From Stramenopiles sp. TOSAG23-3 (Eukaryota): DNA of 51,563 bases. The stretch spans positions 1-51,563 of the forward strand of contig LT642162.1 of assembly GCA_900128585.1 (NCBI GenBank), written 5' to 3'. The notes below the pieces were generated by a model. It searched no databases, was not told where the DNA came from, and worked only from the letters and a program-made list of their open reading frames with translations. Position 1 is the stretch's first letter; every line of letters begins with the position of its first letter. Position numbers and translations under genes: made by a program. This document shows, in pieces, positions 24,401-50,666 of the stretch.

Positions 24401-27400
24401 CAATCGTTTCGGACGCGAACAGCTTTAATATCCCCGTACCTAAATTAATTTCGGCAGACTCAAGAAATGGTATAATGGAGTCTGGTACTTCATGTACATT
24501 CACCGAAGCCCCTGCTGTATTCAAATTCAACGCAACATCTGTTACTTGCGATGCGTCAATATCTAATACAGTGGGGTAGCCGTCACCACCGGGAGTCCCA
24601 GAAATTGCGATGACTGTCACCCGTTGCAGCTCCGTTAATTGTATAGTAAAATTGGTGGTACTGCCGTGACTTCCCAGTATTTTAGCTCCTGTTAGTGCGA
24701 TGTCACTCTCCCCAGTACGGTTCACAACTCTCATGCCATTAACCGATACTGTTGAATTTAATATCGTTTCACTAGCCTGTATTACTAACACACCGTCTCC
24801 TAGACTTAAAAATGCCCCTTTAATAATTCTAGGGGGTATTGTGTCCGCCGTTTCGTTCAGCGGTAAACCAAACGTATCGGCATTGTCATTTTGTGCAATA
24901 TCCTGCAAACCTCCAGCCTCTACATCCAACAATAGCGAAGAACTATCACCCCCAGGGGTACCGGACAACTGAATTGCTCGGGCACGACGCACCTCATCCT
25001 GTAAGATCAGTGTTATTGATGTTTCATCGTCAGCGACTATTGTGGACCCGGCCATGCTAATGTCTTTTCCACCACTGGTTCTGGACAAAAAGAATTTACT
25101 TGTGTCTACCTGGGTAGTGGGTGTTGAGTCTATCGTTTCACTTGACACTATAACCACAGTGCCTGTACTATAATTGACTCTGGAGCTTAGCACAGCTGGC
25201 AAAATAGCATCCGCAGTCTCAGAGACTGTTATGCCTGTAGTTTCATCTGCTAGATTTGTCCCGACATCTCCTACTGCTCCAGCATCAAAGTCAGCAACAA
25301 CGGCACTGTTATCACCCCCTGGGGTTCCAGACTTGGCTATTGCTAGTACTCTTTGTAACTCGGTCAGTTGAATAGTAACAGTGTATGATGGAGTGCTATC
25401 AATTGCGGGCCCTAAAACTTGTGCACCCTCCAGGTTTATTTCCTTCAGCCCGTCACTATTTGAGAGATAAATCCTGCTAACATTCACAAGATCACTTCTC
25501 ATTGTCTCGTCAGCCGTAATTGTCAAGACGCCAGTACCATATGCGACCGCGCAGGACAGAATTGTGGGTGTTTTCGTGTCCTCTATCTCGGTCACAGTCA
25601 CGTTGCTTTGCGCAGGGTTGGCATTTCCAGCAATATCTTGGATTGCTGCAGTGCTTGGATCCATGACTACCCCAGATTTTGAATACAGACCCCCTCGCAT
25701 TCCTGAGATACGCAATGTTTTTGCACGTACCGTCTCTGTTAACTTCATTGTCACTGTCGTGGCGTCCAATGCGGTTACCGTGGCCGCGGTAAGAGCGTAG
25801 CTAAGACCATCGGCGTGTTTGAATTGTAATTGTGATGGGTCTACTAGCGTTGATGGGGTGGAATCGATCGTCTCGCTAACATTAAGAATAACAATCCCAG
25901 TAGAAAAATTTATGCTTGCTGAAAGAACTATTGGTACAGTCGTGTCAGGCACTTCTGTTATTCCCCCCGTAAATATTGACTGCATTCTCAACCCAGCCAT
26001 GTCTACCAACGCTTTATTTTGCACTTTAAGAAACAATGCGGTTTCGTCGCCTCCAGGTGTGGCAGACTTTTCTATTGCATGAACTCGCTGTTCTTCATTT
26101 AATGTTACGACGAGTGTTTTTGTTTCTGATGCAACTACATGTTTTGCACCAGTCAAAGAAACAAAATTATCGCCAGTGATGTTTTCTATATATATACGCC
26201 CTAAATCCACCAAGGAAGTTGGGTTGGCGTCAATGGTTTCGTCGGCATTAATGGTAAGGGTGCCTGTATTCAAGTCTAAGTTTACAGATCCAATAACATT
26301 TGGTGGCACTACGTCCGGGCTTTCTGTGATCTGTAGACCGTGCTGCTCGTCCATTTCATTTCTAGCAATATCAGCTATTGTGGCGGAGTCGAAATCTATA
26401 AACAATCCCGAACCATCGCCACCAGGCTGGCCTGATATTGCTAGGGCCATTATGCGTTGTTCTTCCTGCAATTGAATCGTAACAACACTACCTTCGTTAT
26501 CGTTCCCGTTCACAAAAATAGATTTTGCATGAGTACCAGTTGTAGCAAGCGAAATAAAATCATGATCCCGGCTATGATAAAATGTGCCCTTGCCAGATGA
26601 ATGTGTCCCCGATACGTTGGCAATATTAATTCTGTTTAAGTGTAACTCTCCCGCCACTGGCGCCCCAATGCGCGCGTCAAAATTAACAATTTCAGAAAAC
26701 GTCAGAATCATTAGCCCAGTGCTAAAATTTAAAGAACAAGTTAAAACGGTAGGTGCCTGAACATCAGCAGTCTCATTAAATGTGTCTATGATTAAGCTAC
26801 CAGCTTTGTTAAATTTATTTCCAGAAAGGTCCAGAAACGAAGTGTTTCCATAAATTCGTAAAACGGCAGCAGTGCTAAACCCAGAAGTTCCGGATAATTT
26901 TATGGCGGCAGATCGTTGCTCTTCGGTCAATTTGAACCGAACTATGGTTGCGTCAGTTGTAGTCATCGTATTTACAGTTAATCGAACCCCACTCGCTAAT
27001 GATGAAGAAGACGTTTCAAGCACGTATACACTGCCAGGTGTAACAGAGGCGTGGTCCACGTCAATGGTTTCAGAAAATGAGAGAGAAATCACACCCGTAC
27101 CATAATCAATATTCTGAACACCACTTAATCCCGGAGACCGTTGATCTTCAATTTCTGTCACTGTAATATTTTGCCTTTCGTTGAATACAACACCTATGTC
27201 GTGAAATGCTCCACTATTTGCAACAGTATTTATGGCCGACCCATCCCCGCCAGGAGTGTTCGACCCACGAACAGCGTGCACGCGTTGCTCTTCCGTGATA
27301 ATAATTGTGAATGTCAGTCCGTCAGCACTAGCCAATGTTGACGCACCTTCAAGAGACACAATGGTATCCGCGCCATGCTCAGAGAAAGCAAACGCAGATA

Positions 27401-30400
27401 CATTTATATTACTGGTAGGTGTAACATCAACCGTTTCACTGCATGTAAAGATTAATGCCCTACCTCCAGCTGCTGCGTTATCATCTAAGCTTATCGTTAC
27501 AGACTGAACAATTGGTGAAGTGACATCTGGCAATTCAGTTACATTTATACCGGCGACAGCTTGATTATTAACTTGCCCAATGTCCAAGATGAAACCTCCA
27601 AGAACATCTAGAACTGCCGATCCTCCATCTCCACCGGGTGTTCCAGATATTGCAATGGCTTGGGCCCTCACTGCTTCTAACATACGTATCGTAAACGACG
27701 TGCTATCAGCAGTAGTTAAAAGGTCTGAACCGGCCAATAAGACTGTCTGAGAACTTGTCGACTGCGATAGGTACAGTTTTGAACTGGCCACCTTATCTGC
27801 AGGCGTCAGATCAACCCGTTCAGAAATATTAAAACTGATGTCACCATTGTCATAGTTAACAATAACACCTGTTATAAATGGACGAATGACATCTGGAGAT
27901 TCTGTTACAGCAAGTCCTGGACTTACAGCGCTTGGGTTTGTCGCTAAGTCATATACGGCTGTGGAAAGTACATCCACTATCAAAGCGCTCCCATCACCGC
28001 CAGGGCTGCCGGACTGCTCAATGGCAGAGACTCGGTCTGCCTCCGTTAAGGTAATTGTAATAGATGTGCCATCAGACGGCACATAAACCCCGTCATCAAG
28101 ACTTAGTAGCGCGCCAGACCCAGACGTATTACCAATGAAAACTTGTCCCAGTTGCACCGATTGATTAACACCATAATATGCGCTTCTGTCGGTTTTGTCT
28201 AAATTTATTGTTTCTGACGCACCCAAGATTAATATACCAGTACTCAAATTTATGTCGGCAGTTACAAATCTGGGGCGGGTGGTATCAAAATGTACAAGGT
28301 TGTTCGTAACCACGGCTGCATCATTTCCTCCCCTATCCTGGTATGATACTTGCACAGAGTAATCGACCCCGTCGATTAAAAGATCGGATGGAACAGGAGA
28401 AACGATATCATTATTATTCTTCATTGTTTGAAAGTTATCACCGTGAACAGTGACCTCGAACGTTCCCTGAAGCCTATTGCTTAGAATAAACTCTCGCGGG
28501 CCATTTCCATCGGCAAGCGAGCTAGCCGGGGTCACTATGAGCTTGATGGTTCCTGACAAAGGGTCTTCAGGCAACGTGAACGCCAAGAGAAATGCTGCTG
28601 GCACCCGATCGTAAGCTAATGGTTCTGTTGTTGTGGGAGGTTGGGTAAAAGTACCGACGTACGTAACCCGATCGTGCTGTACAGACGCAGCAGGGTTTCC
28701 TACAGAGTCCCTGTAGCTCAGCACTACCGTATATTTCACACCATCGACCAGATTGACAGCTGGCGAAATGCTTGCCACTTTCCCCGAGTCTTTGAAGGTG
28801 GTAAACACCGCCGTGGTAATGTTGTGTGACCCTACCGTCTCTATTTGTGACGAAAATGTGACAACTCTTGCGGCTGTGGTGTCCTGGATAACCGATAGAG
28901 CATTTTCAGGTCTGAATATCATTTGGACTGTCCCCGGCTTAGGCGTTTCTGGAAGTTTGAAGGATATCAAAAATATATCACTTATGTACTCGTCCGTCTG
29001 CGGTGTCTTAAACGTGGGCGTTAATGTGTGATTCCCAGAATAACCGACTCTACCCTGGGTGAAGGAGGCGATAGGATTTCCTGCTCTATCTTGGTATTGT
29101 AACGTGAAATTATAGACAGCCCCATCCACCAGATTTTGTGCCGGCGTCACAGACACAACAGCGGCATTATCTGCAGCCGCAGTAGTCAGGTTATTAATTG
29201 TCGTAATGTGAGACCCGAATGTCCCAATACTGTCCGCGAATACAACTACCCTTGACGCTGTAGTGAAGTCTGGAACCTCGTCAGCTGTGCTGACGCAAAC
29301 GATCAGTAATTTCAAAGAGCCACTCAATGCATTTTCTTTCAGGACAAAATCTACATCAAAAGCGACAGGCACGAACCCTACTGGCGACGCCATAGACGGT
29401 TTGATGGTCGCCTGGCCAGAAAAATATAGACGTTGCGTATTCGAAAATGCAGCATCATTTGTGGCTACATCTTGATAATTAAGTCGAAAATCGTATACCA
29501 TGCCATCAACGAAGTCGTTAGCATTACCTACGGCTGCTACTTGGGCTAGGGCGTTGGTCAAGTTTGACAGTATTGTGAATTGCATTTGGTGTGAGCTTGC
29601 TTGCTCGACGCTACTGGAAAATGTGATTGTGCGTGTGCCGCCGTTGTCTGCAATGGTCGGATGCGACGCTAAATTGTCTGCTACAAATGTCATTTTAACA
29701 GAGCCACTAAGTGCCGTCTCTGGAATAGTAACATTAAGGATAAAATCTGTGGTGACGTACGAGCCATCTGGCGGAAAGAGAACCGTGGGAGTCTCTGTGA
29801 AGGTATCATAAACCATGCCTGTAACTACGTCGATTGCCGCATCATTATTTGCTGTATCCTTATACGACAATGTCACCGTATAGGGAGACATGTGCACAAG
29901 GTCAATTGCTGGGCTGACTGAAGCAATAAAGCTAAGAGAAGAAGCCGCGGAGGAAAATCCAGTCATTAAACTCGATGCGGTGAACGTTCCGGCACTCTCG
30001 CCAGCAGATGTAAACAGAACTGAACGAGTACCATTAGAATCATATGCTTCCCCGCCGCTCTCGGGGCTAAACAACAGTTGTACAGATCCTGGAAGTGCAT
30101 CTTCCGGCAGCACAAAAGTAATTTGAAATGCAACCTTGACGGGAAAGTTGCTGCCAATAGACTGCAGGGTCGGCGTTCGTGTAAACGTATCAAACACAAT
30201 CACCACCGTAGGGGATGACGCTTCCTCATTATTAACAATGTCCTTCATGTTCATTGCAATAAGGTATGTAACTCCATCCACCAAGTCAATGGCAGGTGAA
30301 ACAGAAATAATATCCGAAGACTGGCCAGCTAAAATGCTAAGATTTGTCATTGGGATCGTATGGGAACCAACACTATCAAACGATGCATTTAGTATAAGAG

Positions 30401-33400
30401 TGCGTTTTCCAGCATCGTCTCCACCAGCAGGTGTAAAGACCAGTGACATAGAGTCTGGGAGAGCTGTTTCACTTACGGCAAATTTAAAGTCAAAGTTGAC
30501 TTTCACTCGCGTTTGGCTAACAGGCAAGCTCACCGCAGGTGGGTCGGTAAATGTATCAAACTCAACAGAAGTACTCAAGGCATGCGCTCTCTCGTTTCCC
30601 GCCATATCTACGTACGAACACGATATTGTGTAAAAAGCTCCATGAACAAGCGAGTTTGTCGGGGCCACTGAATCTATCGAAGCGGAGAGAGATGCTACCG
30701 AAGGTAAGTCAGTGACAGAAACTGCATGTGTCCCAACACTCTCAATCGACGAAGGGAATCGCATTTGCCTGGTCCCCGCGTTATCCACCGATCCGGATGT
30801 TCGTGAAAAAGCGACCAACACTGTCCCAGCTTTCGGTGGTTCTGGGATTGAAAATTGCAGGGTAAAGGTTTGCGCAACTTTAGTGTTCGATGCCGGCAAC
30901 GACAATGTAGGCGAAATGGTCGCATTTCCGCTAAATACAACAGCGGACTGGGTCAAAGACGACTTGATGTTACCAGGGGCATCTTGATATTCCAGAGCAA
31001 AGTCATATATCGCACCGTCGACAAGGTCTGTAGCGGGTGAAAGAGAAGCGATACCAGATAATGATGCCGAATCACTAAACGCGCCAATTGAAACGCTGTG
31101 CGTCCCAGCATTGATAACGGTGGTGTCAAATACAATCACTCGAGCTGCCGCAGTATCTGTGTTTCCTGATGCGTAAGTGATCGTTGCCTTCAAACTTCCC
31201 GCAAGGGCGTTTTCGGGAAGGGTATACAAGAAGGAAAAAGTAGTATTTATCGCTGTTTGGGTCCCGGGTCTAGTGAACACGATAGACTCCGTATTTACGT
31301 CAAACGTAACACTAGTGGCGCTATCCGTTGCAACCGGGTTCAGAACAACATCTTGGTACTGCACGGACACCGTATATTCAGTCATATGCACCAGGTCGGA
31401 CACTTTCGAAACAGCGTTTAAAATTGAACCAATTTCTGCTTGGTCCGTTACCGCAGATGTAAGAGCACCAAGCGTAAACGACTTATTGCCGTTGTCAAGC
31501 AGTCCTGATGATAAAGATAATGTGTGCGGCGCCAGACTGTCAACACTACCGCCCGTGTCGTCAAACACAAGTTTCAGTGTCCCTGCTTTCGCGCGCTCTG
31601 GTAAATTAAACAATATTGGTATTTGCTCCAGGACTACAGACGACGGCTTCGGGAGGAACAACGTTGGGTCTCTTGTACTAGACCCTGCATAAAGCACGTT
31701 TGGTACGGTGGCTTCCACAGGAGGATTTCCTCCTGCGTCGGCATATTCAATAGAAATTGAATATATGCCCCCGTCTACTAAGTTAACATTCGGGGTCACG
31801 GAAGTAAAATACTCCGCTAGCGTCGTTGCCAAGGATGTTAGATCGTAGATCGCAAGTTGGTATGCTAGTGCAAATTCTGCATTTCTATTGAGCACTAATA
31901 GCCGCTCGCCATTACCATCCTCTGCTCCCCCAGTTCTTAAAAACTTTAGCGTTACACTGCCCGGTTCTGCCAACTCTGGGATGATGAATGTTACTGGTAT
32001 TGGTGAACCTACTATTAAGGGTACGGTTATATCGGGGGCCAGCGTGGAGCCCCCTGCGTAGGTGATCAGATCGCGCGTCTGCGTCACTTCGCTGTTCGAA
32101 GCACAGTCTTGATATCTTAGTACAAACCGATAAACTGTACCGTCCACCAGATGATGGTTCCGTGGTTGAACATCCCTTAGGTAGGTGGACGCCGCCAGAC
32201 TGTCATCGTTGTAATGCCCCAGGTCAAAAAATGTAAAATTGGTGTGGTCTTGCCCACCCGCTGCTTCTAAAGCCGGCCCAAACGTAATTGTTCTTGGGCT
32301 GTAAGGATCCGCTGGTCCATCAACGCGAGTGAGCTGCAAAATTAAAGACCCCGCCAATGCCCGCTCGGGCAATCGCAGGCCGATGGTCCAGTTTTGGGGC
32401 AGCGCTACGACCCCAGAGAGTGTGTGTTTGAGTAGCCAAGAGTCGTGGGTTGCTAGGTCCAAGGTCGTATCGCCACAGAACGTCAAACCGGTTAGAAATG
32501 CGGTCGAGCGATCGTTTTGCGCTGCGTCCCGGTATTCCAAAAGAATGCTATACACTCCTCCGTCAATTAAGTCCGTGGCTGGGCTTATGCTTTTTACATC
32601 TGCAAGCCCTGCTAGCCCGGATAGTTGTTGGAACGCTCCACCTGCAATGGTTCTGACCCCGGCGGTTTCCTCCTCAAATATTATGGTCCTCGCACCTGCG
32701 CTATCCGTTTTCCCACCCGTTGGGGTAATTGTCAGTTTTAAACTATCTTCAAACGCTTTTTCGGGCAAGACGAATGTGAAATTAAATGCCGTTTTTAAAC
32801 AAGACGAATTCGCTGGACTGATGATGCGCAATGGCAAAGATTCGCCCCCATGAAATGAAATTCGTGACGTAACGGAGGATTTTGGGTTTCCGACAGGGTC
32901 TTGGTACTCTAGTGAAAGATCATAAATAGCACCGTCGACTAATTCTGTTTGAGGGGATACAGTGCTCACAACAGCCAGGTCCGCAGCCGCTGTGTGAAAA
33001 TTAGTAAATGTCATGAAATGCGAACCACGCGCCTCAATAGCGGAATTTTGGACGAATGTCAAAGTACGGACTGTGACGGGGTCGTTTTGAATGGCCGTCA
33101 AAACTAATTTGATGCTTCCAGTTAAAGGTATATCTGGGAGAGTAAATGACAAATTGAAAGACGAGGCCACCGCACTTTCATCCGCCGGATTCGTTAGTAT
33201 CGGTGTGGCCGTCGCATTGCCCGTGAATTCAATAAAGCCAACGGTCGCACTGTTCGCATCGTTTAAGACTGCGTCCCGGTAGCTTACTGTCACGTTGTAT
33301 ATTGTTCCTTCGTTCAGATCTAAGTCGGGCGCGGAAAGCGCGCCACCTTCGTCCGGCAACGCTGCAACAGATGTAATAAGCGCGCTAGAAGTCGCGGCGG

Positions 33401-36878: not shown

Positions 36879-36979
36879 GAAAGAAAGAAAGAAAGTATAC
36901 GAAAGAAAGAAAGAAAGTATACGAAAGAAAGAAAGAAAGTATACGAAAGAAAGAAAGAAAGAAAGAAAGAAAGAGTCGA

Positions 36980-37011
<32 letters not shown>

Positions 37012-37138
37012 GTCGAAAGAAAGAGAAAGAAAGAAAGAAAGAAAGAAAGAAAAGAAAGAAAGAAAAGAAAAGAAAGAAAGAAAAGAAAGAAAGAAAGAAA
37101 AGAAAGAAAAGAAAGAAAGAAAGAAAGAAAAGAAAGAA
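36879..37138 (+). repeat. (GAAA)n composite microsatellite with GTATAC and GAGTC interruptions
   Basis: Directly visible; 3 gaaagtatacgaaag and 2 aagagtcgaaag variant units. Confidence 0.95.
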
Positions 37139-39673: not shown

Positions 39674-41995
39674 TTAATTGTTCCTGTCATCAAGTCCACG
39701 GCCACCGTGGGCACTCCCCAGCTTCGGGACCAGCTGGTCCATCCGACTGTGCAACGTCTCCATTTTCCGTTGCATGGATGCGCTTTGCATTTGAACGGCT
39801 TCGAGATTCGTTGTTATCTTCCCCCAGTATTTGCTCTGATTCGTGTGCACCATGCCCAGGGCCTGAATGAGGCGTTTCATAGACGTAAGACCAATGTCTT
39901 TCGCGGCAAACTCATCCATACTGGGACTTTCAGCAAGCCCTTCGCTCATGGACGCCAATTTTGCTTCTTTCTGCTCCCTATCATAAATGTACAAAATCCT
40001 TGAATTGATTGGTTGCTTGCACAACGACATGATACCCCGAACCTGTTCGTCTGTAACATCTTTGTGGTCCAAAAGCCCCCCCTCTAAGGCTTTTAATACC
40101 AGCGCAAAGTGCATGAAAACCGTGTGCTGATTCTGGCGCTTGAGTCTCCAAAGCTTCAAGCGTTCCTTGACTTCGTCGATGGTCATGTTGGATGGGTCAC
40201 CACAAAAATATCTAAACACTTTTGGCAAGCACGTCCGCGGCTGTTTCAGTTGTCGAACGAACCGGCGGTAGGTTCTTGGGTTCGTAAGGTACTCCCCTAG
40301 GTCAAGAACCGTTCGGCGCCAGCCGCTCATGATGTCTATGTTCTCTTCGCGCGCGTACTGCTTGTCTAAGCGTTCCTTCTCTTTGTGCCACACGTCCAAA
40401 ATGATCGACAAGAAAATGTTTGTCATGACAAAGTAGAAAAGAACAGTAAAAATGACAAAAAAGTACGGCGCAGAATCTGGGTCCGCTTCCACAAAACGGT
40501 TGTAGTCAATGTCCCCGATGGCCATCCGAAGTAGAGTGACAGAACTCGCCCGCAACGTTTTAAAATCGGCCGACCGGGGGCCGAAGAGAACGTAGCCACT
40601 GAAGACGAACCCGAAAAACATCAGAAAGAACAGGACGAAGAAATATATCATGTCTTTGAAGGCCATGGCGAGGGTTCGAAACACCGATTGAAGCCCGGAC
40701 GTCAAGTTCAAGTATTTAAACGTTCTAACGATGAGCAGAATTGTGTTAAGGGCATAAAGCTGCTGCATCGTCCGGTACCACAAAAGCAAGCTTGACGTGT
40801 TATAGAACGAGCCACTGTCCAGGGCAGACACTATCTGCAATTGATCGTCCAGGAACACGCCGCGACGAACCGAATCGTAGACGTGGATGCAGAACACAAA
40901 GTACATGACGGCATCTACCAGCGTCCACAGGTTTACGTTGTTCAGCCCGCGAGTGCGCAACCCGCCGAGAAACTTCAATGTATCCAAAATGATGATGATG
41001 CAGAGGAGGATATCCAAGAATACTATAAATGTTGCGGTGGAACTAGCGCGTTCCACAAGTTGCCCGTGGTAAAAGATGGCCTCCGTCTCCACCCAGCCCG
41101 ACACGGCAAATTCTATTCGAAACTCCGACCGAACAAACAAATCATAGTTCACATTGATGGTGGAGAACTGGACAAACACGCCCCGGGTCTGCTTGTCGAT
41201 GAACGGCACGCAAGTCGACGCCTCGGTGAGGAGTTCGTTGGGGCCTCTGGGCCAGCATGCCATCCATTTGATGGCTTGCTGCGCGGCAGTGCGATTCGTG
41301 TTCAAGTCGTAGATGTGCCCGGCCCCCGAGTAGACGACGGGGTTTATGCTTGCCCTGCTCTCCATCGGAAGGTCTCCCGTCTCTGCCGCAGGTTTCCAAC
41401 GGTACAGGCTCGTGTTGGACGCCTTCAAGATTCCGCCGAACCCTTGAGTGTCCATGTTTTCCTGGGAAAAATCGGTGGCACACTTGGTTTTGTCGACCAC
41501 CCCCGCGTCTAAGATTACAGGCGGCAGGTCGCACACAGTCTTGGATTTCACCCTTGCCTGGCGGAGCCGCACGCCCCACAACAGCTCGTTGTAGTTCTTC
41601 ACTGCGTGCGGACCGGTCGGGGAGGCGGTGTTGTTGTACATCCTTTCCACCAGAATCTGGTCGCACCAGCGCCAGAAGTTGTCCACCGTATCGATGTCGT
41701 CGAACGTGATCAACGTGTCCGTCGTCGAATGGAACTGGCTGCGAACGAACGTTTCCCGTAGTGTATTCTCTACTGCAAAACTGTGGGTGACGCTATTCTG
41801 CAAGACGACGTACGGCATGAACGTGACAACAAACATGAAAAACCGAAACATTTCGCGGCGCAGATGTTTCGCAGCGACTGCTTTGTCTACTTCAAAAAAC
41901 AGACGATCGTACATGATGTACTTTCCACGAAACTCTCCCATCTCGTAGTCGTCGTCCTCATTTTCCTTCTCTTTCTTTTTTTTATCGCCAAGCAT
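39674..41995 (-). CDS. PKD2: Polycystin-2-like (TRPP) cation channel, 773 aa
   Basis: S1 helix, then TOP/polycystin domain (TFDDIDTVDNFWRW, NELLWGVRLRQARV, two Cys, YSGAGHIYDL, FIDKQTRGVFVQFSTINVNYDLF), S2-S5, pore loop FKTLRASSVTLLRMAIGDIDY, S6 FYFVMTNIFLSIILD and a C-terminal coiled coil. Orthology to a particular PKD2 paralog is not established. Confidence 0.92.
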   Translation of the reverse strand: MLGDKKKKEKENEDDDYEMGEFRGKYIMYDRLFFEVDKAVAAKHLRREMFRFFMFVVTFMPYVVLQNSVTHSFAVENTLRETFVRSQFHSTTDTLITFDDIDTVDNFWRWCDQILVERMYNNTASPTGPHAVKNYNELLWGVRLRQARVKSKTVCDLPPVILDAGVVDKTKCATDFSQENMDTQGFGGILKASNTSLYRWKPAAETGDLPMESRASINPVVYSGAGHIYDLNTNRTAAQQAIKWMACWPRGPNELLTEASTCVPFIDKQTRGVFVQFSTINVNYDLFVRSEFRIEFAVSGWVETEAIFYHGQLVERASSTATFIVFLDILLCIIIILDTLKFLGGLRTRGLNNVNLWTLVDAVMYFVFCIHVYDSVRRGVFLDDQLQIVSALDSGSFYNTSSLLLWYRTMQQLYALNTILLIVRTFKYLNLTSGLQSVFRTLAMAFKDMIYFFVLFFLMFFGFVFSGYVLFGPRSADFKTLRASSVTLLRMAIGDIDYNRFVEADPDSAPYFFVIFTVLFYFVMTNIFLSIILDVWHKEKERLDKQYAREENIDIMSGWRRTVLDLGEYLTNPRTYRRFVRQLKQPRTCLPKVFRYFCGDPSNMTIDEVKERLKLWRLKRQNQHTVFMHFALVLKALEGGLLDHKDVTDEQVRGIMSLCKQPINSRILYIYDREQKEAKLASMSEGLAESPSMDEFAAKDIGLTSMKRLIQALGMVHTNQSKYWGKITTNLEAVQMQSASMQRKMETLHSRMDQLVPKLGSAHGGRGLDDRNN

Positions 41996-42336: not shown

Positions 42337-42443
42337 ATAAAAACTACGGCTAGCTATTTCCATATTAAAAATTGAAGAAGAAGAAAAGAGGATGGATTAA
42401 CAATTAACAGACAAAAACAAAATTCTTTGGATGGATCGTATAG

Positions 42444-42448
42444 TTTCT

Positions 42449-42504
<56 letters not shown>

Positions 42505-42639
42505 TCGACTCTTTCTTTCGACTCTTNNNNNNNNNNNNNNNNNNNNNNNNNNNNNNNNNNNNNNNNNNNNNNNNNNNNNNNNNNNNNNNNNNNNNNNNNN
42601 NNNNNNNNNNNNNNNNNNNNNNNNNNNNNNNNNNNNNTT

Positions 42640-42671
<32 letters not shown>

Positions 42672-42819
42672 TCGACTCTTTCTTTCTTTCTTTCTTTCGA
42701 CTCTTTCTTTCTTTCGTATACTTTCTTTCTTTCTTTCTTTCTTTCGACTCTTTCTTTCTTTCTTTCTTCTTCTTTTTTAGATTTTTTTCTTTCTTCTTTC
42801 TTTCTTTCTTTCTTTCGAC

Positions 42820-42858
<39 letters not shown>

Positions 42859-42897
42859 CTCTTTCTTTCTTTCTTTCGACTCTTTCTTTCTTCTTCT
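42444..42897 (-). repeat. (GAAA)n composite microsatellite (TTTC on plus) containing an assembly gap
   Basis: 7 ttcgactctt and 1 ttcgtatactt variant units, the reverse complements of those at 36879..37138. Confidence 0.95.
42527..42637. other. Assembly gap (111 N)
   Basis: Run of n characters inside the microsatellite. Confidence 0.99.
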
Positions 42898-43126
42898 CAT
42901 TATGATGATGTTTCAGTGCTCTGTTTATATTAATTTGATAGTGGTATTCCCTCTTTTGAGTTTCAACGATCATCACCCTCTCTATTTTGAGCATTGAACA
43001 ATAAAACTAATGTTATCTATATTTATCATTCATCACCATATCACCATACAACCATGTAAATCAGTAAATAATTTGAATTAAGAGCAAACAGAGCAGGTTC
43101 GTTTATTTACTGTTTTCGTGGTTGCA

Positions 43127-43205
43127 CGTTGCCAACGTTGCAAGTTGCAACCCTCAAATCTAAAAACAATCTCTCTTATTTATCTTTTATACACACTCTC
43201 TCTAT
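43127..43205 (+). repeat. 79-bp inverted repeat, left copy
   Basis: cgttgccaacgttgcaagttgcaaccctcaaatctaaaaacaatctctcttatttatcttttatacacactctctctat is the exact reverse complement of 45574..45652. Confidence 0.97.
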
Positions 43206-45575
43206 TCGACCCGCCGCTCCAAGCCCGCCAGGCAAAATTGCAGGCGTGAACCGCTTCCGCTTCTCTCTCGGAGACGGGAGCGAAAACGGTTCTTCTTGGG
43301 CCATGCCAGGCCCTGGGAGAAAGTTCCCCCGGGGCGCAAGGCTGCTACCCATAGATCCCAGGACGGGGCCGGTCAGCGAACTGTTTCCCTTGCGCGCCCC
43401 GCCGCTTAATTTCTTTTCTGCCGCCAGCAGGGGGTGGGGCATCGGCTCCGCGGAGGACAGCTTTGCAGGTTGGAACCGTTTCCGGCCAATGTCGGGCGTG
43501 GAGATTTTCTCCAGGGGGTGGGCGTCGTCAAAGTTAATGCCGGAAGCGAACGGCAGGCCGGACCCGAGCGGTTTCAGGCTTACTTTCGTGTTGGTGTTCA
43601 TGGACCATGAATCGTTTTCGCCGTCCCCTTTCAGGGCCGCCTTGATCTCCTCGTCTTCGAGCAGCGAGAAGTCCTCCTCGCTGTCCTCGTTCGCGCCGTG
43701 CATTGGCTTGACCTGGCCGTACTGCTCCTCCCCGGCCATCCCCATGACCGTGTTGGACCTCTGCTCCTTTCGCCGCTTGTCCTTCCTCGACTTCTTTTTC
43801 TTCTTCTTTCGCTTCTTGCCCCCGCCGTGCTCCCCGAACGGTTCCGCGGACACGGAACGGTTCGGCTGGGGCGCCATGTTGTGCAGCGCGCCCATCCGGG
43901 GCGGCTCCATGTACAGGACGTTGTCCGCGCCGTTCTCGTTCTTGAGGACGCGGGTGGGGGACGTCGGCAGCGTCGCGTCGATGGCCAGGCCCGTAAACCC
44001 CCTGTCGTCGCTCGACCGGCCCTCTCCGCCACGGGACCGGCGGCCGTCGCCCGGCTTGTTGTTTGGCCGCTTGACCTTCTTCTGGGCCACCGCGGTGTCT
44101 TGGGCGTCGAACTTGGCGTCCTGGAATGGCCCGGTCCCGCCGCCCTCTCCCGCCCCCTCGTGGGCCTTGTCCGGGAGCGGCGAGGCGAACCCAGGGTGAA
44201 GCGGGCGGTCCCGGGCCTCTTTCTCGTGCTGGGCGACGTCCTCCGCGACGTTGAAGTGGGTCTTTTCCTCCATGCTCCAGATCGTGGGCTGGGTCACGGT
44301 GTCCTCGTCCCCCTCCCTGGGCGCCATGTGCGCGACTCCGACGCCGCCCGTCTGCCGCCCCCGGTGCTTTCGCCGCAAGTGGTCCTCCGTGCTCTCTTGC
44401 AGGAGCTTGGCGGCGAGCTGCTCGCGGCCCTCGAGGCGCCGCTTCTTCTGCAGCTTGGTGTGCAGGTTCTTGTAAAACTTGGCTCGGGGGTGGGTCCAGA
44501 CGGACTGCACCTTGTTCGCCCCTGGCCCGCCCATGCCGAGGGACTTCTCCATGTCCGCCTCCCAGCCCGATATTTTCGCAAACGTGGTGCCCTCGGCCCC
44601 TCCGCCCCCTTTCGCCTTCGCGGTCTCCCGCGCGACGGCGCCCGAGTTTGCGGAGTAGTAGTGCCACTTCCCGTTCGGGTCCGCGCGGTAGACCCACCCG
44701 GGCAACGGCTTCGACAGGCCCTGGTCGATGAGCCAGAGAAAGTCGGACCGGTCGTTCTTCGGGTTGATCCCGATCAGCGTTGCAAAGTCGACGACCTGCT
44801 TCTCCAGCAGGCCCTTCTTCTTTAGCTTCTCCAGCAGCCGTTCGAACGGCGTCATGTTGCTCGCCTTCTCCGCCTTCTCCGCCTCGGCGGCCGCAATCGC
44901 GGCCTCCTCCGCCATCCGTTGGGCCTCTTCCTCCGCGAGGCGCTCTTTCTCGGCGGCCTCCGCGTCCCCGTGAAGGGCCTGCTGTATGGCCTCCAGGTCC
45001 AGCACCCGCCCCGTTTTCGTCTTCTCCCTGGTCTGGTGGTCGAACGTGTACACGGACCCGTCCTCGTCGACGTACTCCGGGACGACGTTTAGCCCGTCGT
45101 CCCCCCCCATGCTGTCCTCCATGGCCTCCTTCAGCTCCTCCCTGCAGACGCCGAGGACCTCCTTGTAGTACTCTTCGGAGGGGTGGTCGTCGAGCGCCAT
45201 CAGCGCGGTCTCCCGGTCGTTCCGGCAGAGCCATTTCTCGTACGTATAGCACACCCCGGGCTCTTCCCCGTCGTGAACGAGCGTGGACCGAAGGTGGGCC
45301 ACCTCCGAGTCCGGGGCGTGCTCGGTCCACCCCGGTGGGAGCTCCACGCACGAGGCCATCCGCGGGATCCACATGAGCGTTTGCTCCGTGTCCAGGTCTA
45401 TTTCCATGTACTCGGCCAAGTCCTCTACGTCGTCCGGGTGAACGTCCCAGAACGTCTTTGCGGCGTCCTCCTTCGGCCCCACGTCGTCCGTGTCCGGGTC
45501 CCCAAGGACCTTCTTGTAATGCAGGAGCGCGTCCTGCCGGGACATGCGAATCTTCTTTTCCTGCGCCTTCGTCAT
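43176..45575 (-). CDS. Protein with two CEP164-N-terminus-like WW modules and a long disordered tail (799 aa from the ATG at 45575); probably the 3' part of a gene starting at 46048
   Basis: LAEYMEIDLDTEQTLMWIPRMASCVELPPGW...HPSEEYYKEVL and FATLIGINPKNDRSDFLWLIDQGLSKPLPGWVYRADPNGKWHYYS...WTHPRAKFYKNL resemble the CEP164 N-terminal helical-bundle plus WW module. Strong G/C-ending codon bias in this frame. Confidence 0.82.
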   Translation of the reverse strand: MTKAQEKKIRMSRQDALLHYKKVLGDPDTDDVGPKEDAAKTFWDVHPDDVEDLAEYMEIDLDTEQTLMWIPRMASCVELPPGWTEHAPDSEVAHLRSTLVHDGEEPGVCYTYEKWLCRNDRETALMALDDHPSEEYYKEVLGVCREELKEAMEDSMGGDDGLNVVPEYVDEDGSVYTFDHQTREKTKTGRVLDLEAIQQALHGDAEAAEKERLAEEEAQRMAEEAAIAAAEAEKAEKASNMTPFERLLEKLKKKGLLEKQVVDFATLIGINPKNDRSDFLWLIDQGLSKPLPGWVYRADPNGKWHYYSANSGAVARETAKAKGGGGAEGTTFAKISGWEADMEKSLGMGGPGANKVQSVWTHPRAKFYKNLHTKLQKKRRLEGREQLAAKLLQESTEDHLRRKHRGRQTGGVGVAHMAPREGDEDTVTQPTIWSMEEKTHFNVAEDVAQHEKEARDRPLHPGFASPLPDKAHEGAGEGGGTGPFQDAKFDAQDTAVAQKKVKRPNNKPGDGRRSRGGEGRSSDDRGFTGLAIDATLPTSPTRVLKNENGADNVLYMEPPRMGALHNMAPQPNRSVSAEPFGEHGGGKKRKKKKKKSRKDKRRKEQRSNTVMGMAGEEQYGQVKPMHGANEDSEEDFSLLEDEEIKAALKGDGENDSWSMNTNTKVSLKPLGSGLPFASGINFDDAHPLEKISTPDIGRKRFQPAKLSSAEPMPHPLLAAEKKLSGGARKGNSSLTGPVLGSMGSSLAPRGNFLPGPGMAQEEPFSLPSPREKRKRFTPAILPGGLGAAGRIERVCIKDK

Positions 45576-46048
45576 AGAGAGAGTGTGTATAAAAGATAAA
45601 TAAGAGAGATTGTTTTTAGATTTGAGGGTTGCAACTTGCAACGTTGGCAACGCTGGTCGCGCAACATCTTTTCAAAAATCTCCTTGTACGCTGGCACAAG
45701 GGGGTGCTCGAACGAGACGGACAATTCCACGTCGTTCTCGTCGAACTTGACGTAGTACGCCTTGTCGTCCGGGTTGACGAACATTTTATACTCCCCTGGC
45801 AACTCCGTCGTCAGTGCCTGGTTCAGCAGCCACACGTTCTCCGTGTCGAACTGAAGGTCCATTCCTATCGCTTTCGCAAACATCGATTCGTCTTCCTTGT
45901 TCGGGTGATGAAACCGTTTTCGCGGCGGGGAGGTTCGATTCGTAGGCGACACGGGCGGTTTCCTCCGACGCTTTGACGACGACGATTTTCCTCCTCCTCC
46001 TCCCCCACCACCCCGCTTGGTGTTCACTTTCAAGTTACGTTTTGCCAT
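45572..46048 (-). CDS. CEP164-type WW module protein, 5' part (about 132 native codons plus 26 codons read from the inverted repeat)
   Basis: MFAKAIGMDLQFDTENVWLLNQALTTELPGEYKMFVNPDDKAYYVKF...SFEHPLVPAYKEIF is the same module as the downstream ORF, preceded by a basic Gly-rich N-terminus. Confidence 0.75.
   Translation of the reverse strand: MAKRNLKVNTKRGGGGGGGGKSSSSKRRRKPPVSPTNRTSPPRKRFHHPNKEDESMFAKAIGMDLQFDTENVWLLNQALTTELPGEYKMFVNPDDKAYYVKFDENDVELSVSFEHPLVPAYKEIFEKMLRDQRCQRCKLQPSNLKTISLIYLLYTLSL
45574..45652 (-). repeat. 79-bp inverted repeat, right copy
   Basis: Exact reverse complement of 43127..43205. The ORF track shows the same 25-aa N-terminus for ORFs 43129(+) and 45650(-). Confidence 0.97.
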
Positions 46049-46396
46049 ATTCTCTCAACGCATACAAAAAATAATAACAAGAAACACGATGTCGAGGCTT
46101 CAATCCTCAAAAAATACAATGAAAAATCTACCTACCTCACCTCGTGTGTAAAACTTTACAAACCTGAAACCTGAAACTTCCTTCTCCATTTCGTTTTTCT
46201 TCTTCTTCCCTTCTTCTTCTTCTTCTTCTTTAACGGCAATGTTTTCATTCTTTGCTATGTCCCTGTTAAATGCTAAGAATCCAACAAAAGAAGCCTTTCT
46301 TTGATATGAATTGATGCTGTGTTTATATTATGAAATGTTATGCTATTTATATATTAATCTCTGAGGGTGAGGGTCCTCGTTTTGATTGAGTTGATA

Positions 46397-46408
46397 CTTT
46401 TTCTTTCT

Positions 46409-46474
<66 letters not shown>

Positions 46475-46697
46475 GACTCTTTCTTTCGACTCTTTCTTTC
46501 TTTCTTTCTTTCTCTTCTCTTTCCTTCTCTTCTCTTCTCTTCTCTTTCCTTCTCTTCTCTTTCCTTCTCTTCTCTTCTCTTCTCTTCTCTTTCCTTCTCT
46601 TCTCTTCTCTTCTCTTTCCTTCTCTTTCCTTCTCTTCTCTTTCCTTCTCTTCTCTTTCCTTCTCTTCTCTTTCCTTCTCTTTCCTTCTCTTCTCTTC
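46397..46697 (-). repeat. (GAAA)n microsatellite grading into GAGAA/GGAAA pentamer-type satellite
   Basis: tttc repeats with 2 ttcgactctt units, then ttctc/tttcc repeats on plus. Confidence 0.93.
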
Positions 46698-47141
46698 CAT
46701 TCTCTTCCTACTTTCCTGTTATAATTAAATTCACCCATTAATATACAATCAACCCATCTCCACCCAATTCAAATTAAAGATTCAATAGATATTATCCTAT
46801 TAAATCAATTGACCTCAATTTCACCCTTCGTTTTTCCATGCGTGAGTTGCAGCAATTGTGCAGCAGGTTAACGTGGCTAGTACAGATAACACACTCTTAT
46901 CACTACTTTCATTGATAGGAACGTGTCTGTCTAGTGTAAACACTTACAACTACATTTTTTCGCTTCCTCTTGGGAGTCAACCAACTTTATTGTACTTACT
47001 GCTTTATATGGTAGTCTGAAATGGCTTCCGTATCGTATATTACGTCGTACCACTATGGTACTTTGTCCCGTGTCTCATCTCATAGGCAGAATGACCCTGG
47101 CTTAGTACCTGTAGATGCGTTACGATAGTTGTTTTCATAGG

Positions 47142-50100
47142 CTAGTTAATTACAAAGTGTATGCCGATGGTACGACCGTCCATTTCTTGTTTGCTTGGGT
47201 CCACGATTGCGACTTTTTGGTACTTTGCTTTTCCGACAAAAGCTTCAATCACGTAGACCCCAGGGCCGACGGTGGTCTCTGGGCACTTCTCCCCATTCTC
47301 CACGACGACGGCGCAGACAATGCAGCCGTTCTCAACGTCGGTCACGAAATCTTTGCACAGGGTGATCTTTACAAATAGTGGAAGGGTGGTCCCGTTCGTG
47401 TTGCTAAAGCCCACCCGAATCTTCGGCAGGACAACATGGTGGACCGCAGGGCTCGGCTTTGACGCTTTGTTCAGGGCCACGCACACCTCGCTCATCAACC
47501 GTTCGACCGCAGTGGACACTTTCTCCTTCCCGACGGGGCTGTTTGCGACGGGGGCGGGCAGGACGGGGAGGGTGCTGGAGAACGGGCGCTTTGTCCAGCC
47601 AAGGGAAGCAGGAGACCGCTTGGTGGGCGACTCCCTAGGCCCGTACTCCAAGGACAGCAGCGGTACCTTTTTTTTCGACGGTTCGACTTTCATAATCGAC
47701 GGCGACGTTTTCCACAGTTTTTTCTCCGCTTTGGACAGCCACAAGTCCCCAATACTGCTCAGAAACGCCTCGTCGTCGCCCGGCGTTTCGTCCTCCTCGT
47801 TGCCGAGAGCAATGTCCCGGGGGGCTTCCTCGACGACGTTCCCGTCTTGAAGCGCATGCAGCGCTTCTACTCCAGACCCCGATTCGTATTTGCTGGGCAC
47901 CTCCAAGACGTTCTTTGCAACGTCGATGCCAGTCTTCAGACGCGTCGAATCCTCCTCCAAGTACGTCAACTTCTCCTCCAACGTTTTCACCGCCGTGACC
48001 GTGCTGGAAATCACCGACTCCTGCATGTCGTCCAAGTGCTCTGGCACCTCCCCGTTAACCTTTGCGACCCACAGGCCGTGGGTGCCGTGGGGGTTCGAGG
48101 AACGCACCCAGGACCCGCAGAAAGGCTCCTCCAGCCTGAACCATTTCCCGAGAGCTTCTGCCACTTTCAACTGTTGGCCAGGAAACAAAATGCCTAGCTT
48201 GCCAGTGAAGACTCCGTCCGCCATGATCGGGAGGCGCAAATACGCGGTGGCGTTGTGGGTCGCACCGGGGACCAGGTGGCTCGCCGGCATTTCCGCGGTG
48301 GAAGCATTGTGGACATATTCGTGAGGGTGAACGATGCCCCGTGCGCCCGTCAACGGGAGCAACTTTCGCTTCTTCTTTGGAATGGCGCTGTCCTCGATGG
48401 CGTTTACGGGCTGGTGCATTTGTGCCATGGCGTCCTTGCCCACGGCCTGGCCGGGCGTACTGAACGCGCGCGCTATCGATGCGACTTTGATCGCGTTTCG
48501 GCGGCCCTGTTCCGCGCGTTTCAGCGCGGACTCTAGCGTTCCCACCTGAACCTTCAACTCTGCGATGGTATCAGAGCTTTCCGTTCCCGCGGACGACGCT
48601 CTCGCGCTTTGCTTCGACCTGGTCGTGCGAGAGAGTTTTTTTAATTTAATTTTTTGGTACATCCGTTTCCGTTGCTTGCGTTTCAGCAAGGCTAGCTGCG
48701 ACGTGGGCTGCCGCGCCTGGGGGATGCTGGGCGTCGGGAGCGTTGGCGCCAGCGCCCGTTCCCTTCTGGTCCGCGTGCCTGCCGGGCTCGTGCTAGCTGG
48801 TTCCGCGATGCCTTCCACCTGGTTTGAAGCCGCGGGGTGGGCTTCCCCTTGCTGCTGCAGCTGTTCGTGGTGGGCGTGCAGCTGGTGGAGAATGTTTGCT
48901 TGCATCGTAACTGCATTTTGAAACGCCTCGCTGGCTCGGCCCGCTCGTTTCCCTCGCCCTGCCCCGGCCACGTCGTCTGCCGGCATCTCCTCCAACGCGT
49001 CCTCGACGGGCACTACCGCTCCGTTGTCCTGCCCTTCCTTCGGCATTTCCCCCGTTTGTTGCTCGTCTTCCGCGGCGGCCGTCGCCTCTGCTTCCTCTTG
49101 GGCGTCGCTATTTTGATTCGCCGTGGCTTTCTGCCCCAGCCGCTTTTGCAAACGGTCGTGCTGCTGGTTCACCGCGTCGGATTTTACTACATCCGTATTC
49201 TGAATGGCCCCGCTCGCTCCTTCGTCGACGACGGCCTCGAGTTTCTTTCCCTGGTTCTCCTGCCTTCTCTTATGGTCCGCCTTCTGCTGCAAACGCTTTT
49301 GTAATTTGTCGTGCTGGTCGTGCTGGTGGTCGAGAATACCGCTCTGTACAATTTCAGCGTTGGTGTAGGCTTCGCTGGTTCCCGCGTCGATCGCCTCGCC
49401 CATTTGCACCACGCGCGCTTCGTTCTTTCTTCGATCGTTCGATTTGTCCTTCAACCGCTGCTGCAACCGATCGTGTTGGTCGTGTTGCTGCTTGGCAGCG
49501 TTGTTCTGTACAATTTCGGCGTTATGAAAGGCTTCCTCCGTCTCACGGTCGACCTGATCGTTGAAGTGGTCGGCCTGGGGCTGTTCCACGGGCGCCTTGT
49601 GCTTTTGCCCCTTTTCCTTCAAACGCTTTTCCAGACGCGCGTGCTGCCGTTCTTTTTTCTCGATCGCATCGGCTTGCACGATTTCGGCGTTCTCAAACGC
49701 ATGCTTGGCTTCCTCGTCGATTGCATCGCCCCTTTCTACAACCGCCCGCTCCATCTTCTCTTTCTCCTTTTGTTTTCTTTTCAACCGCATCTGTAGTTTG
49801 TCGTGCTGCTGGTGGTGTTTTTCCACGGCACCGGCGTGTACTATCTCGGCGTTATGAAACGCGTCCTTAGTTTCTTGTTCCACCATTTCTTTAATCTGCC
49901 CAGTGTTGTGTGTTTGAAGGACGGGTCTTGTCTCCATTGCCGTGTCCTCCGTCGGAGCAGGTGCGGGGCTACCGTTTTCCGCCGCGGCGACAATTATCGA
50001 TGTTCCTGGTTGCTGCGATTCCGACTCTCCCTCGGAACCATCGTTGGATTGCTCCGCATCGGGCGCTTCTTCCTCCGTAGCAACGGGCGTTTCTGCCTCC

Positions 50101-50666
50101 GAACGTGGCACCGCGCGCTTCATTCGATTCAGAGTTTTGCTTTTCCATTTTTGGACCGCTTCAAACGAAAAGTCGTCGTCGCTCAAATCGATATCATCGG
50201 AATCGCTGCCCGCGTTCCCGGCGTCGTTGCGTTTCGCCCACTTTGCAACCGCTTCGTACGAAAAGTCGTCGTCGTTCTCGGAGAGGGGTTCGTCGCTGGA
50301 ATAATCGCTCGCCTCTTCGTTCGCTGCAAGCTTTGGAAATGGTGTCAAATTCATTCCCATGGGCCCCGTCGTGAAATTCGCCAGGACGGACTTTGCGGTG
50401 ATGCTACGCCGACCTGCAGCGCCCGCCTTTGCGGGGACGACCCTCGGGGGCAGCTGCGTCCCACCAGGGCTTGCCAAAAGGCTCGTCTGCCGCTGCTGTT
50501 CGTCCCGTAGTTCTTCGATGTGCTGCATTTCCAAAACCTGCGATTTTCGAAGTTCGTCTCGAATGTCCGCCACATCCCCAGGCGAAATATCGATCTGAAG
50601 TTGTTGCAGGATGGTATCCACTTCCGCGGACTCTACTCCACCCACGTCGTCAGAGCCGTTACTCAT
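47142..50666 (-). CDS. Hypothetical 1174-aa protein with ~54-aa His/Gln-rich helical repeats, coiled coils and an SH3b-like domain
   Basis: 3.5-kb ORF with G/C-ending codon bias. Repeats AFxNAEIV...QHDxLQxRL. ATAYLR...GKLGILFPGQQLKVAEALGKWFRL....SWVRS resembles SH3_3-type domains. Confidence 0.85.
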   Translation of the reverse strand: MSNGSDDVGGVESAEVDTILQQLQIDISPGDVADIRDELRKSQVLEMQHIEELRDEQQRQTSLLASPGGTQLPPRVVPAKAGAAGRRSITAKSVLANFTTGPMGMNLTPFPKLAANEEASDYSSDEPLSENDDDFSYEAVAKWAKRNDAGNAGSDSDDIDLSDDDFSFEAVQKWKSKTLNRMKRAVPRSEAETPVATEEEAPDAEQSNDGSEGESESQQPGTSIIVAAAENGSPAPAPTEDTAMETRPVLQTHNTGQIKEMVEQETKDAFHNAEIVHAGAVEKHHQQHDKLQMRLKRKQKEKEKMERAVVERGDAIDEEAKHAFENAEIVQADAIEKKERQHARLEKRLKEKGQKHKAPVEQPQADHFNDQVDRETEEAFHNAEIVQNNAAKQQHDQHDRLQQRLKDKSNDRRKNEARVVQMGEAIDAGTSEAYTNAEIVQSGILDHQHDQHDKLQKRLQQKADHKRRQENQGKKLEAVVDEGASGAIQNTDVVKSDAVNQQHDRLQKRLGQKATANQNSDAQEEAEATAAAEDEQQTGEMPKEGQDNGAVVPVEDALEEMPADDVAGAGRGKRAGRASEAFQNAVTMQANILHQLHAHHEQLQQQGEAHPAASNQVEGIAEPASTSPAGTRTRRERALAPTLPTPSIPQARQPTSQLALLKRKQRKRMYQKIKLKKLSRTTRSKQSARASSAGTESSDTIAELKVQVGTLESALKRAEQGRRNAIKVASIARAFSTPGQAVGKDAMAQMHQPVNAIEDSAIPKKKRKLLPLTGARGIVHPHEYVHNASTAEMPASHLVPGATHNATAYLRLPIMADGVFTGKLGILFPGQQLKVAEALGKWFRLEEPFCGSWVRSSNPHGTHGLWVAKVNGEVPEHLDDMQESVISSTVTAVKTLEEKLTYLEEDSTRLKTGIDVAKNVLEVPSKYESGSGVEALHALQDGNVVEEAPRDIALGNEEDETPGDDEAFLSSIGDLWLSKAEKKLWKTSPSIMKVEPSKKKVPLLSLEYGPRESPTKRSPASLGWTKRPFSSTLPVLPAPVANSPVGKEKVSTAVERLMSEVCVALNKASKPSPAVHHVVLPKIRVGFSNTNGTTLPLFVKITLCKDFVTDVENGCIVCAVVVENGEKCPETTVGPGVYVIEAFVGKAKYQKVAIVDPSKQEMDGRTIGIHFVIN

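Follow-up and report, generated by a model that had tools for sequence, protein, structure and literature searches.

The perfect inverted repeat that brackets a 2.4-kb open reading frame (ORF) in the window, by which we mean the entire 51,563-nt stretch of contig LT642162.1 of Stramenopiles sp. TOSAG23-3, is very probably an error and not a genetic element. The evidence below points strongly to its right copy being a misplaced 77-nt piece of the gene's own downstream flank, brought in by an assembly or amplification chimera that splits a conserved gene. Because this misplaced flank piece replaces a G-rich coding stretch, the apparent cassette is most readily explained as an assembly or amplification error. 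The features of the locus, with P0001 denoting a 99.7% identical database protein of 914 residues, are as follows.

45653 to 46048, minus strand: 5' part of the gene, 132 codons (MAKRNLKV...KMLRDQ), without a stop of its own.
45575 to 45651, no strand assigned: foreign piece, a 77-nt reverse-complement copy of 43128-43204 that replaces 117 nt of native linker coding sequence.
43207 to 45573, minus strand: gene body, corresponding to P0001 residues about 117-906 (TKAQEKK...GLGAAGR), which is the 2.4-kb ORF minus its artificial start and stop.
43205 to 43206, no strand assigned: deletion site, where 36 nt of native sequence are absent (the last 8 residues NVNSMGAL, TGA, and 9 nt of 3' flank).
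43127 to 43205, minus strand: left repeat copy, genuine 3' flank and probable 3' UTR, beginning 9 nt past the true stop.

The deposited letters bear out the repeat described by the first-pass annotation. A repeat search identifies arms at 43127-43205 and 45574-45652 that are exact reverse complements over 79 nt (100% complementary), separated by 2368 nt, and an exact-repeat scan in both orientations (k=40) recovers the same pair as the longest exact repeat in the window. The scan finds 26 exact repeats, among which the 79-nt pair alone is not a microsatellite. When up to 3 mismatches are allowed, the 79-mer has 2 matches in the 51.6-kb window versus none in all 100 shuffles. The annotation had also noted the lack of a target-site duplication and of a transposase, and both observations hold: the outer flanks differ (GGTTGCA versus CTGGTCG), and neither the ORF list nor a Pfam search yields a transposase-like ORF or Pfam match between the arms. 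By the same two routes, no recombinase gene is found within or beside the inner segment. The outer end of the left copy can form a hairpin (43120-43152, -9.2 kcal/mol, z = -2.26), although 6 of 200 shuffles fold equally well, and this structure is too weak to be read any further. The scaffold carries an N gap 600 nt from the repeat locus.

Two minus-strand ORFs are read from the deposited sequence. The larger, as reported earlier, encodes 799 residues from an ATG at 45575-45573 that takes its first two letters from the end of the right copy, and it ends within the left copy at a stop at 43176 (...GAAGR-IERVCIKDK-stop); use of a TTG at 45650 as an alternative start would extend the product to 824 residues. 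The smaller, upstream ORF (46048..45572, 158 residues), which the first-pass annotation does not mention, has no stop of its own, crosses the entire right copy, and terminates at a TGA overlapping the ATG of the 799-residue ORF. Neither product is assigned to a family in a Pfam search, in which the only match, to Choline_bind_3 at 17.4 bits, falls short of the cut-off of 27.

Comparison with homologous proteins reveals that these ORFs are fragments of one gene. First, tblastn places P0001 residues 116-906 at 45578..43206 with 99.7% identity over 791 residues, and residues 1-78 at 45883..45650, the 99.7% figure being given for both the 791- and the 78-residue stretch. Second, the 40 residues of P0001 that lie between the two window ORFs, and the 8 that follow ...GAAGR, are nowhere encoded in the window. 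The missing linker (GGDEGGGGGQSL) is 40 residues long and Gly/Glu-rich. Third, the homologues P0002 (58% identity), P0003 (48%) and P0005 share the same unbroken layout, with a conserved Q[DE]AQ..LAG at the start of the linker. The product of 45653..46048 aligns with the N-termini of these three proteins as far as ...MLRDQ and then diverges, and the window ORFs part from all four proteins exactly at the repeat boundaries. In the genomic contig of one relative (L001) the gene is a single ORF of 1081 residues, and in another contig (L002) it is divided between two overlapping ORFs of 376 and 671 residues, probably through a frameshift in that contig; a bracketing inverted repeat around the gene is absent from both. 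A scan of metagenome contigs with P0001 returned three loci from other species or of partial length (49%, 45% and 71% identity, the last over 75 residues), with no near-identical native locus among them.

Contigs from four public sequencing runs provide an independent view of the locus: the probable source sample (X1), a second sample of the same organism (X3), and two independent marine metagenomes (X2 and X4). All four sets are Logan contigs (k=31) and not raw reads. The gene body is intact in these data, with one X1 record spanning 43205-45574 at zero differences and a depth of 60, and with contigs of X2 and X4 also tiling 43207..45573. The region 45652-46100 is covered in all four runs; it is the only part covered in X3, although 0.88 of the sampled words are present in that run, and the hole in its coverage carries no evidence. 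The left copy is covered without any difference in X1, X2 and X4, where it is continuous both with 42950-43126 and, through 34 extra letters, with the gene body. In each of these runs the same 34 letters separate one piece that ends at 43206 from another that starts at 43205, and as the pieces overlap by 2 nt, the native sequence absent from the window amounts to 36 nt, present in all three runs that cover 43205/43206. Hand translation of their reverse complement, continuing the frame of ...GGT CGA, yields N V N S M G A L and a stop, which is how P0001 ends.

The right copy fares differently. No listed contig piece of any of the four runs covers 45575-45651, and no joint is reported there. Contig pieces stop fitting at 45574 (X1, X2 and X4) and at 45652 (all four runs); because the end bases of the 79-nt arm at these two positions also match native sequence, the foreign piece is exactly 77 nt. 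Beyond both junctions the contigs continue into native coding sequence. On the gene-body side, the loose ends of X1 and X2 run into GCGACTG and then poly-C, where the contigs end, with X1 terminating in at least 23 C directly past 45574 and X2 after GCGACTGCCCC. On the upstream side, those of X1, X2 and X3 enter the start of the native linker. Hand translation of the loose ends gives ...GGQSL-TK and MLRDQ-QDAQNVLAGA, both belonging to the P0001 linker. The first-pass annotation had treated reads joining CAG directly to downstream coding sequence as the mark of an assembly artefact, and in substance this is what the contigs exhibit, joining ...GAC CAG to CAG GAC GCC CAG AAT..., the beginning of the linker. 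Of the origins that it listed, the chimera is thus the one that agrees with the contigs, all of which continue natively wherever they reach a junction. Its suggestion of an inverted duplication of the gene's 3' end is right in that the letters present twice do come from the genuine 3' flank, but their second occurrence is confined to the deposited assembly and is not seen in the contigs examined. The gene's reliance on the repeat for its start and stop turns out to be a by-product of the error, with the true start lying upstream and the true stop within the 36 missing nucleotides.

Taken together, the protein and contig comparisons indicate that the native locus is one minus-strand gene of about 969 codons without introns. 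From 5' to 3' it consists of 46048..45653, a 120-nt Gly/Glu-rich linker, 45572..43207, 24 nt more and a TGA; 9 nt further on comes an AT-rich 3' flank, which is the left repeat copy.

The linker itself gives the true path a reason to break, since it includes a long run of G (C on the plus strand) at which the contigs end. Short-read assemblies fail to cross this run, and in the scaffold the resulting break was bridged by the 77-nt inverted copy of the gene's 3' flank from 2.4 kb away, with 36 nt being lost at the other end of the 2,370-nt unit 43205-45574. The outcome is a gene seemingly bracketed by a perfect inverted repeat that donates both its ATG and its stop. As to how this arose, the likeliest source is the formation of inverted chimeric molecules during whole-genome amplification, a path error in the de Bruijn graph or in gap closing, or both, the wrong path presumably being adopted because the homopolymer interrupted the true one. 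The path that was deposited must have had some reads behind it. X1 depth shifts two-fold (60 versus 30) between the two contigs meeting at the locus, and the Logan contig sets from the organism's own runs amount to only 7-16 Mb; both would fit an amplified, partial genome. By eye, TCGT.ATAGAG is common to the native 3' flank and to the point at which the gene body meets the inverted copy (TCGTAATAGAG in the native form versus TCGTCATAGAG in the window), with four matches, one mismatch and one match lying just outside the 77-mer. A one-step chimera is insufficient, because the second junction, from the inverted copy to the upstream exon, has just 1 nt in common with the native sequence.

The locus resembles two known sources of error. 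According to Lasken & Stockwell (2007, PMC1855051), inverted sequences accompanied by intervening deletions make up more than 85% of the chimeras from multiple displacement amplification (MDA), and complementarity of 2-21 nt is seen at over 70% of junctions. The likeness to these is threefold: the gene is joined to inverted nearby DNA of the same molecule, 2.4 kb away; a deletion and a few complementary bases at the junction are present; and the sample has the look of an incomplete genome with uneven coverage. However, a single inverted chimera would continue into the inverted flank, whereas in the window the path departs from the inverted copy at exactly 77-79 nt and returns to the correct upstream exon. 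A second event, or a decision by the assembler, is therefore needed. The locus also resembles a misassembly, the error occurring exactly where the independent k=31 contigs break in poly-C. Misassembly of de Bruijn graphs or during gap closing at homopolymer breaks is generally known, and 77 is a k-mer size common in short-read assembly. The length of the foreign piece equals this usual k, the N gap is 600 nt away, and the unit 43205-45574 abuts the same 77-mer both ways, as an edge would that occurs twice on one bidirected vertex. Both the amplification (MDA) and the k=77 origins of the error are inferred.

The alternative that survives best is that the arrangement is a real structural variant of the sequenced cell, or a minor allele, that the assembler happened to pick, and we regard it as very unlikely. 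On this account a replication fork stalled at the poly-G run, and a microhomology-guided template switch of the FoSTeS/MMBIR type inserted the inverted 77 nt and deleted the 36 nt. The short TCGT.ATAGAG homology with the native 3' flank at the junction would suit such a switch, and the homopolymer in the replaced segment could stall polymerases in vivo as in vitro. Minor variants also escape contigs: because contigs lose rare variants, the native form is shown at high depth, and the form in the window is not thereby absent from every molecule. Against this account, the contigs of the probable source itself are native at every junction that they reach, at depths of 60 and 30, and the variant is seen neither in the two independent metagenomes nor in the second sample. 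It would also break up a protein that is conserved among relatives at 45-58% identity, and a length of exactly 77 nt for the foreign piece is not what an event in vivo would be expected to give. The narrower proposition that the rearranged form is real in a minority of molecules or in one allele, through an in vivo template switch at a fork stalled by poly-G, is given slightly less credence still.

The misplaced-flank reading also accounts better for the locus than does mobile DNA, in the form either of a small mobile or introner-like element inserted twice in opposite orientations or of a cassette bounded by terminal inverted repeats (TIRs) and carrying the gene. Introner-like elements have been reported in marine protists, and perfect 79-nt inverted arms around a unique segment recall both these and TIR elements of the MITE or foldback kind, a likeness confined to the window. 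Unlike such elements, however, the locus has no target-site duplication, no transposase and, within the window, only two copies of the repeat, one of which native DNA lacks. Coding sequence is replaced, not interrupted: with 117 nt of conserved coding sequence gone, neither excision nor splicing could restore the frame or the missing residues, and by eye no frame-keeping GT..AG boundary is present. In two independent metagenomes the left copy is fixed, occupying an identical position without any change and with no loss of the surrounding sequence, and the right copy is in none. Both the IR-bounded cassette and the paired insertions proposed in the first-pass annotation are accordingly set aside as highly improbable. 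Reading the right copy as an intron was rejected as well, since removal of the 79 nt leads downstream into an Arg/Gly/Pro-rich junk frame (the 612-residue ORF 43534..45372), the GT..AG candidates 45651..45567 and 45651..45561 are both out of frame, and the window contains none of the 40 linker residues that P0001-P0003 and P0005 possess. An adapter or vector origin of the 79-mer is ruled out by the native context of the left copy in two independent marine metagenomes; the loose resemblance of the 79-mer to the transposase mosaic end (TCTCTTAT...TATACACA) was given no weight.

The invertible segment raised in the same annotation has only its geometry to commend it, arms in inverted orientation flanking 2.4 kb, and is barely credible, given that no gene for a recombinase occurs within the segment or next to it, that contigs of the four runs report no strand-changing joint or opposite orientation of the inner segment, that native DNA lacks one of the arms, and that inversion would part the two halves of one conserved ORF.

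The relevance of these findings is mainly one of quality control. The public scaffold splits a conserved gene of about 969 residues into two false ORFs, one of 158 residues with a repeat-encoded tail and one of 799 residues with a repeat-encoded start and stop; since these termini are invented, any gene model or protein taken from the scaffold is wrong here. The warning sign is an inverted repeat that is perfect and as long as a k-mer, one arm of which occupies a stretch that is homopolymer-rich in homologues, in a scaffold with N gaps. Such repeats should be compared with homologous proteins and independent reads before they are called mobile or invertible elements. If the real variant were true, the locus would instead be a natural snapshot of a FoSTeS-type rearrangement in an uncultured marine protist.

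The perfect inverted repeat described in the first-pass annotation is confirmed in coordinates, length and complementarity: a repeat search of the window recovers arms at 43127–43205 and 45574–45652, each 79 nt, 100% complementary and spaced 2368 nt apart. The 79-mer matches the window twice at ≤3 mismatches, at the two arms, versus 0/100 shuffles, and the arm pair is the longest of 26 exact repeats (k=40, both orientations) and the sole one other than (CTTT)n-type microsatellite. The enclosed minus-strand ORF is also as described; its ATG joins the right arm's final two bases to G45573, and it spans 799 aa (824 aa if counted from an upstream TTG), ending in the left arm with the tail ...GAAGR-IERVCIKDK-stop at 43176. 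The outer flanks of the arms contain no duplication, in agreement with the earlier report of no TSD. An upstream minus-strand ORF absent from that annotation (46048..45572, 158 aa) has no stop of its own, crosses the entire right arm and terminates at a TGA overlapping the ATG.

The window looks eukaryote-like, with long intron-less ORFs, most of them on the minus strand:

423..35402, minus strand, uninterrupted 11,659-aa ORF, 44–53% GC
39674..41995, polycystin-type channel ORF
47142..50666, 1174-aa ORF

The first is a giant intron-less gene of a kind unassigned by Pfam, with no family at E ≤ 1e-5 in its first 10,000 residues. Spacers between the long ORFs are AT-rich with (CTTT)n throughout; in three of them (42400–42900, 46380–46700 and 36880–37150) (CTTT)n/(GAAA)n is broken up by a recurrent CGACTC unit, a composite motif present in both orientations and matching exactly over as much as 59 nt. 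The sole N gap (111 N at 42527–42637, ~600 nt from the left arm) sits within one of these spacers. At the outer end of the left arm, 43120–43152 forms a quasi-palindrome (GGTTGCA...TGCAACC, with palindromes AACGTT and TTGCAA) whose DNA folding is weak (-9.2 kcal/mol, z = -2.26); it could be a 3’-end signal, or a fold-back site favouring chimeras.

The inverted repeat is very likely an artefact of scaffold construction and not a biological feature. Among the four origins proposed earlier, assembly or amplification chimera is the one upheld, both by homologues that cross the two junctions and by the lack of the right arm in the contigs listed for four sequencing runs. First, the 799-aa ORF matches the database protein P0001 (914 aa) with 100% best-segment identity; further homologues are P0002 (58%), P0003 (48%), P0004 and P0005. 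By tblastn against the window, P0001 residues 1–78 map to 45883..45650 and residues 116–906 to 45578..43206, the latter at 99.7% identity (2 of 791 residues differ, one being the artificial ATG codon); the ~40 intervening residues, QDAQNVLAGATEDPGEGERQEAGEAEGEGGDEGGGGGQSL, and the last 8, NVNSMGAL, match nowhere in the window. In alignments the upstream ORF tracks P0001, P0002, P0003 and P0005 through ...EKMLRDQ and parts from all four precisely at the start of the right arm. The 799-aa ORF enters the alignment at TKAQEKK, immediately past the right arm, and departs at ...GLGAAGR, the start of the left arm. In our reading the upstream exon ends at 45653 on a codon boundary and the body restarts at codon ACG 45572–45570; therefore, 40 codons fit between them in frame. 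The gene is one unbroken 1081-aa ORF in L001, a relative’s metagenomic contig, and a bracketing inverted repeat is found at the gene in neither L001 nor a second such contig, L002. The L002 homologue (783–3912) is divided between two overlapping ORFs of 376 aa and 671 aa (the latter open at its 3’ end), a split probably due to a frameshift error in that contig. The true gene is therefore a single ORF of ~969 codons, comprising 55 residues before the first residue of P0001 plus 914.

Second, 15 of 24 listed public runs contain at least half of the locus’s sampled words. Logan contigs, which unlike raw reads reveal variants present but cannot show variants absent, were compared over 42950–46100 for four runs: X1, a possible source run, and X3, a different sample of the same organism with coverage confined to the upstream side of the locus, and X2 and X4, metagenomes of marine and seawater origin taken from two further studies. 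One 2776-nt X1 contig (depth 60, 0 differences) spans the left-arm side. The X1, X2 and X4 contigs fit 42950–43206 and then 43205 onward, with an identical 34 extra letters between the pieces in all three; the pieces overlap by 2 nt, and the window therefore lacks 36 native nt. Reverse-complemented, this insert continues in frame after ...GGT CGA as AAC GTC AAC AGC ATG GGG GCC TTG TGA (N V N S M G A L stop), followed by nine further bases and then the left arm. Thus, the left arm, identical in two independent natural populations (X2 and X4), is the genuine 3’ flank of the gene, and the real stop codon has been lost from the window. Within the spacer that follows the gene, 8 nt are absent at 43032 and A stands for G at 43082 in both X2 and X4, and X1 agrees with the window at both positions; these differences are natural population variation, and X2 and X4 are therefore independent of the source.

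On the right-arm side, none of the listed contig pieces of X1–X4 lies on 45575–45651. Gene-body-side pieces cease fitting at 45574 in X1, X2 and X4, and upstream-side contigs of X1, X2 and X3 at 45652. Where loose ends on the gene-body side are listed (X1 and X2), they read GCGACTG and then a C run (at least 23 C in X1), at which the contigs end; the reverse complement is ...GGG GGG CAG TCG CTG ACG AAG (G G Q S L T K). The upstream loose ends, likewise reverse-complemented, read CAG GAC GCC CAG AAT GTG CTG GCG GGG GCC (Q D A Q N V L A G A). Loose ends on both sides are the P0001 linker. As the two end bases of the arm also fit native sequence, the foreign piece is 45575–45651, exactly 77 nt, which takes the place of 117 native nt.

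That the deposited form is a genuine minor allele, produced in vivo by template switching, is highly improbable. The contig data are compatible with an undetected variant, but the native form is at high depth in X1, the probable source itself, and the variant is seen in no other sample compared; such an allele would moreover cut a conserved protein in two, and the exact 77-nt length of the piece would have to be coincidental. Mobile or introner-like insertions, proposed earlier, fail: the right arm substitutes for coding sequence and does not interrupt it, the arms have no TSD, just two copies occur within the 51.6-kb window, and native DNA lacks one of the arms. The proposed invertible segment fails on that same missing arm, with no recombinase found and no strand-changing joint in the contigs.

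The artefact most likely arose at the long poly-G/C run of the native linker, which independent assemblies at k=31 also fail to cross. With the true path interrupted there, the deposited assembly would have linked the body of the gene to its upstream exon by way of the closest AT-rich flank, copied in inverted orientation. Chimeric template molecules and a graph or gap-closing error are compatible, not mutually exclusive, causes; both fit, and the present data do not tell them apart. In one account of multiple displacement amplification (MDA), inverted sequences with intervening deletions make up >85% of the chimeras, most of them intramolecular, and over 70% of junctions have 2–21 nt complementarity (PMC1855051). 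As in most MDA chimeras, the inverted donor here is on the same molecule, 2.4 kb off. The junction TCGTCATAGAG is similar to TCGTAATAGAG in the native flank. At the other end, the loss of 36 nt fuses GGGTCGA to ATAGAG, and the native flank has TCGTA ahead of ATAGAG. Contig sets of small size (7 and 16 Mb), together with a two-fold change in depth (60 vs 30) from one X1 contig to its neighbour, suggest an amplified partial genome. Assemblies commonly use k = 77, and the foreign piece, of exactly this length, counts toward a graph or gap-closing error. The unit 43205–45574 abuts the same 77-mer in both orientations, as would an edge that connects twice to a single bidirected de Bruijn vertex. 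The second junction, from inverted copy to upstream exon, has just 1 nt in common with native sequence, more than a simple one-step chimera would account for.

The reconstructed ~969-aa protein has no Pfam family and contains three similar short motifs, which may be WW-type repeats:

motif 1, N-terminus, W(L/I)..QAL...LPG.Y/W.....P.G..YY
motif 2, LPPGWTEH
motif 3, FLWLIDQGLSKPLPGWVYRADPNGKWHYY

The protein is conserved at 45–58% identity in marine metagenome contigs. What the locus holds is an ordinary conserved protist gene, its Gly-rich linker containing a homopolymer, that a misassembly has broken.
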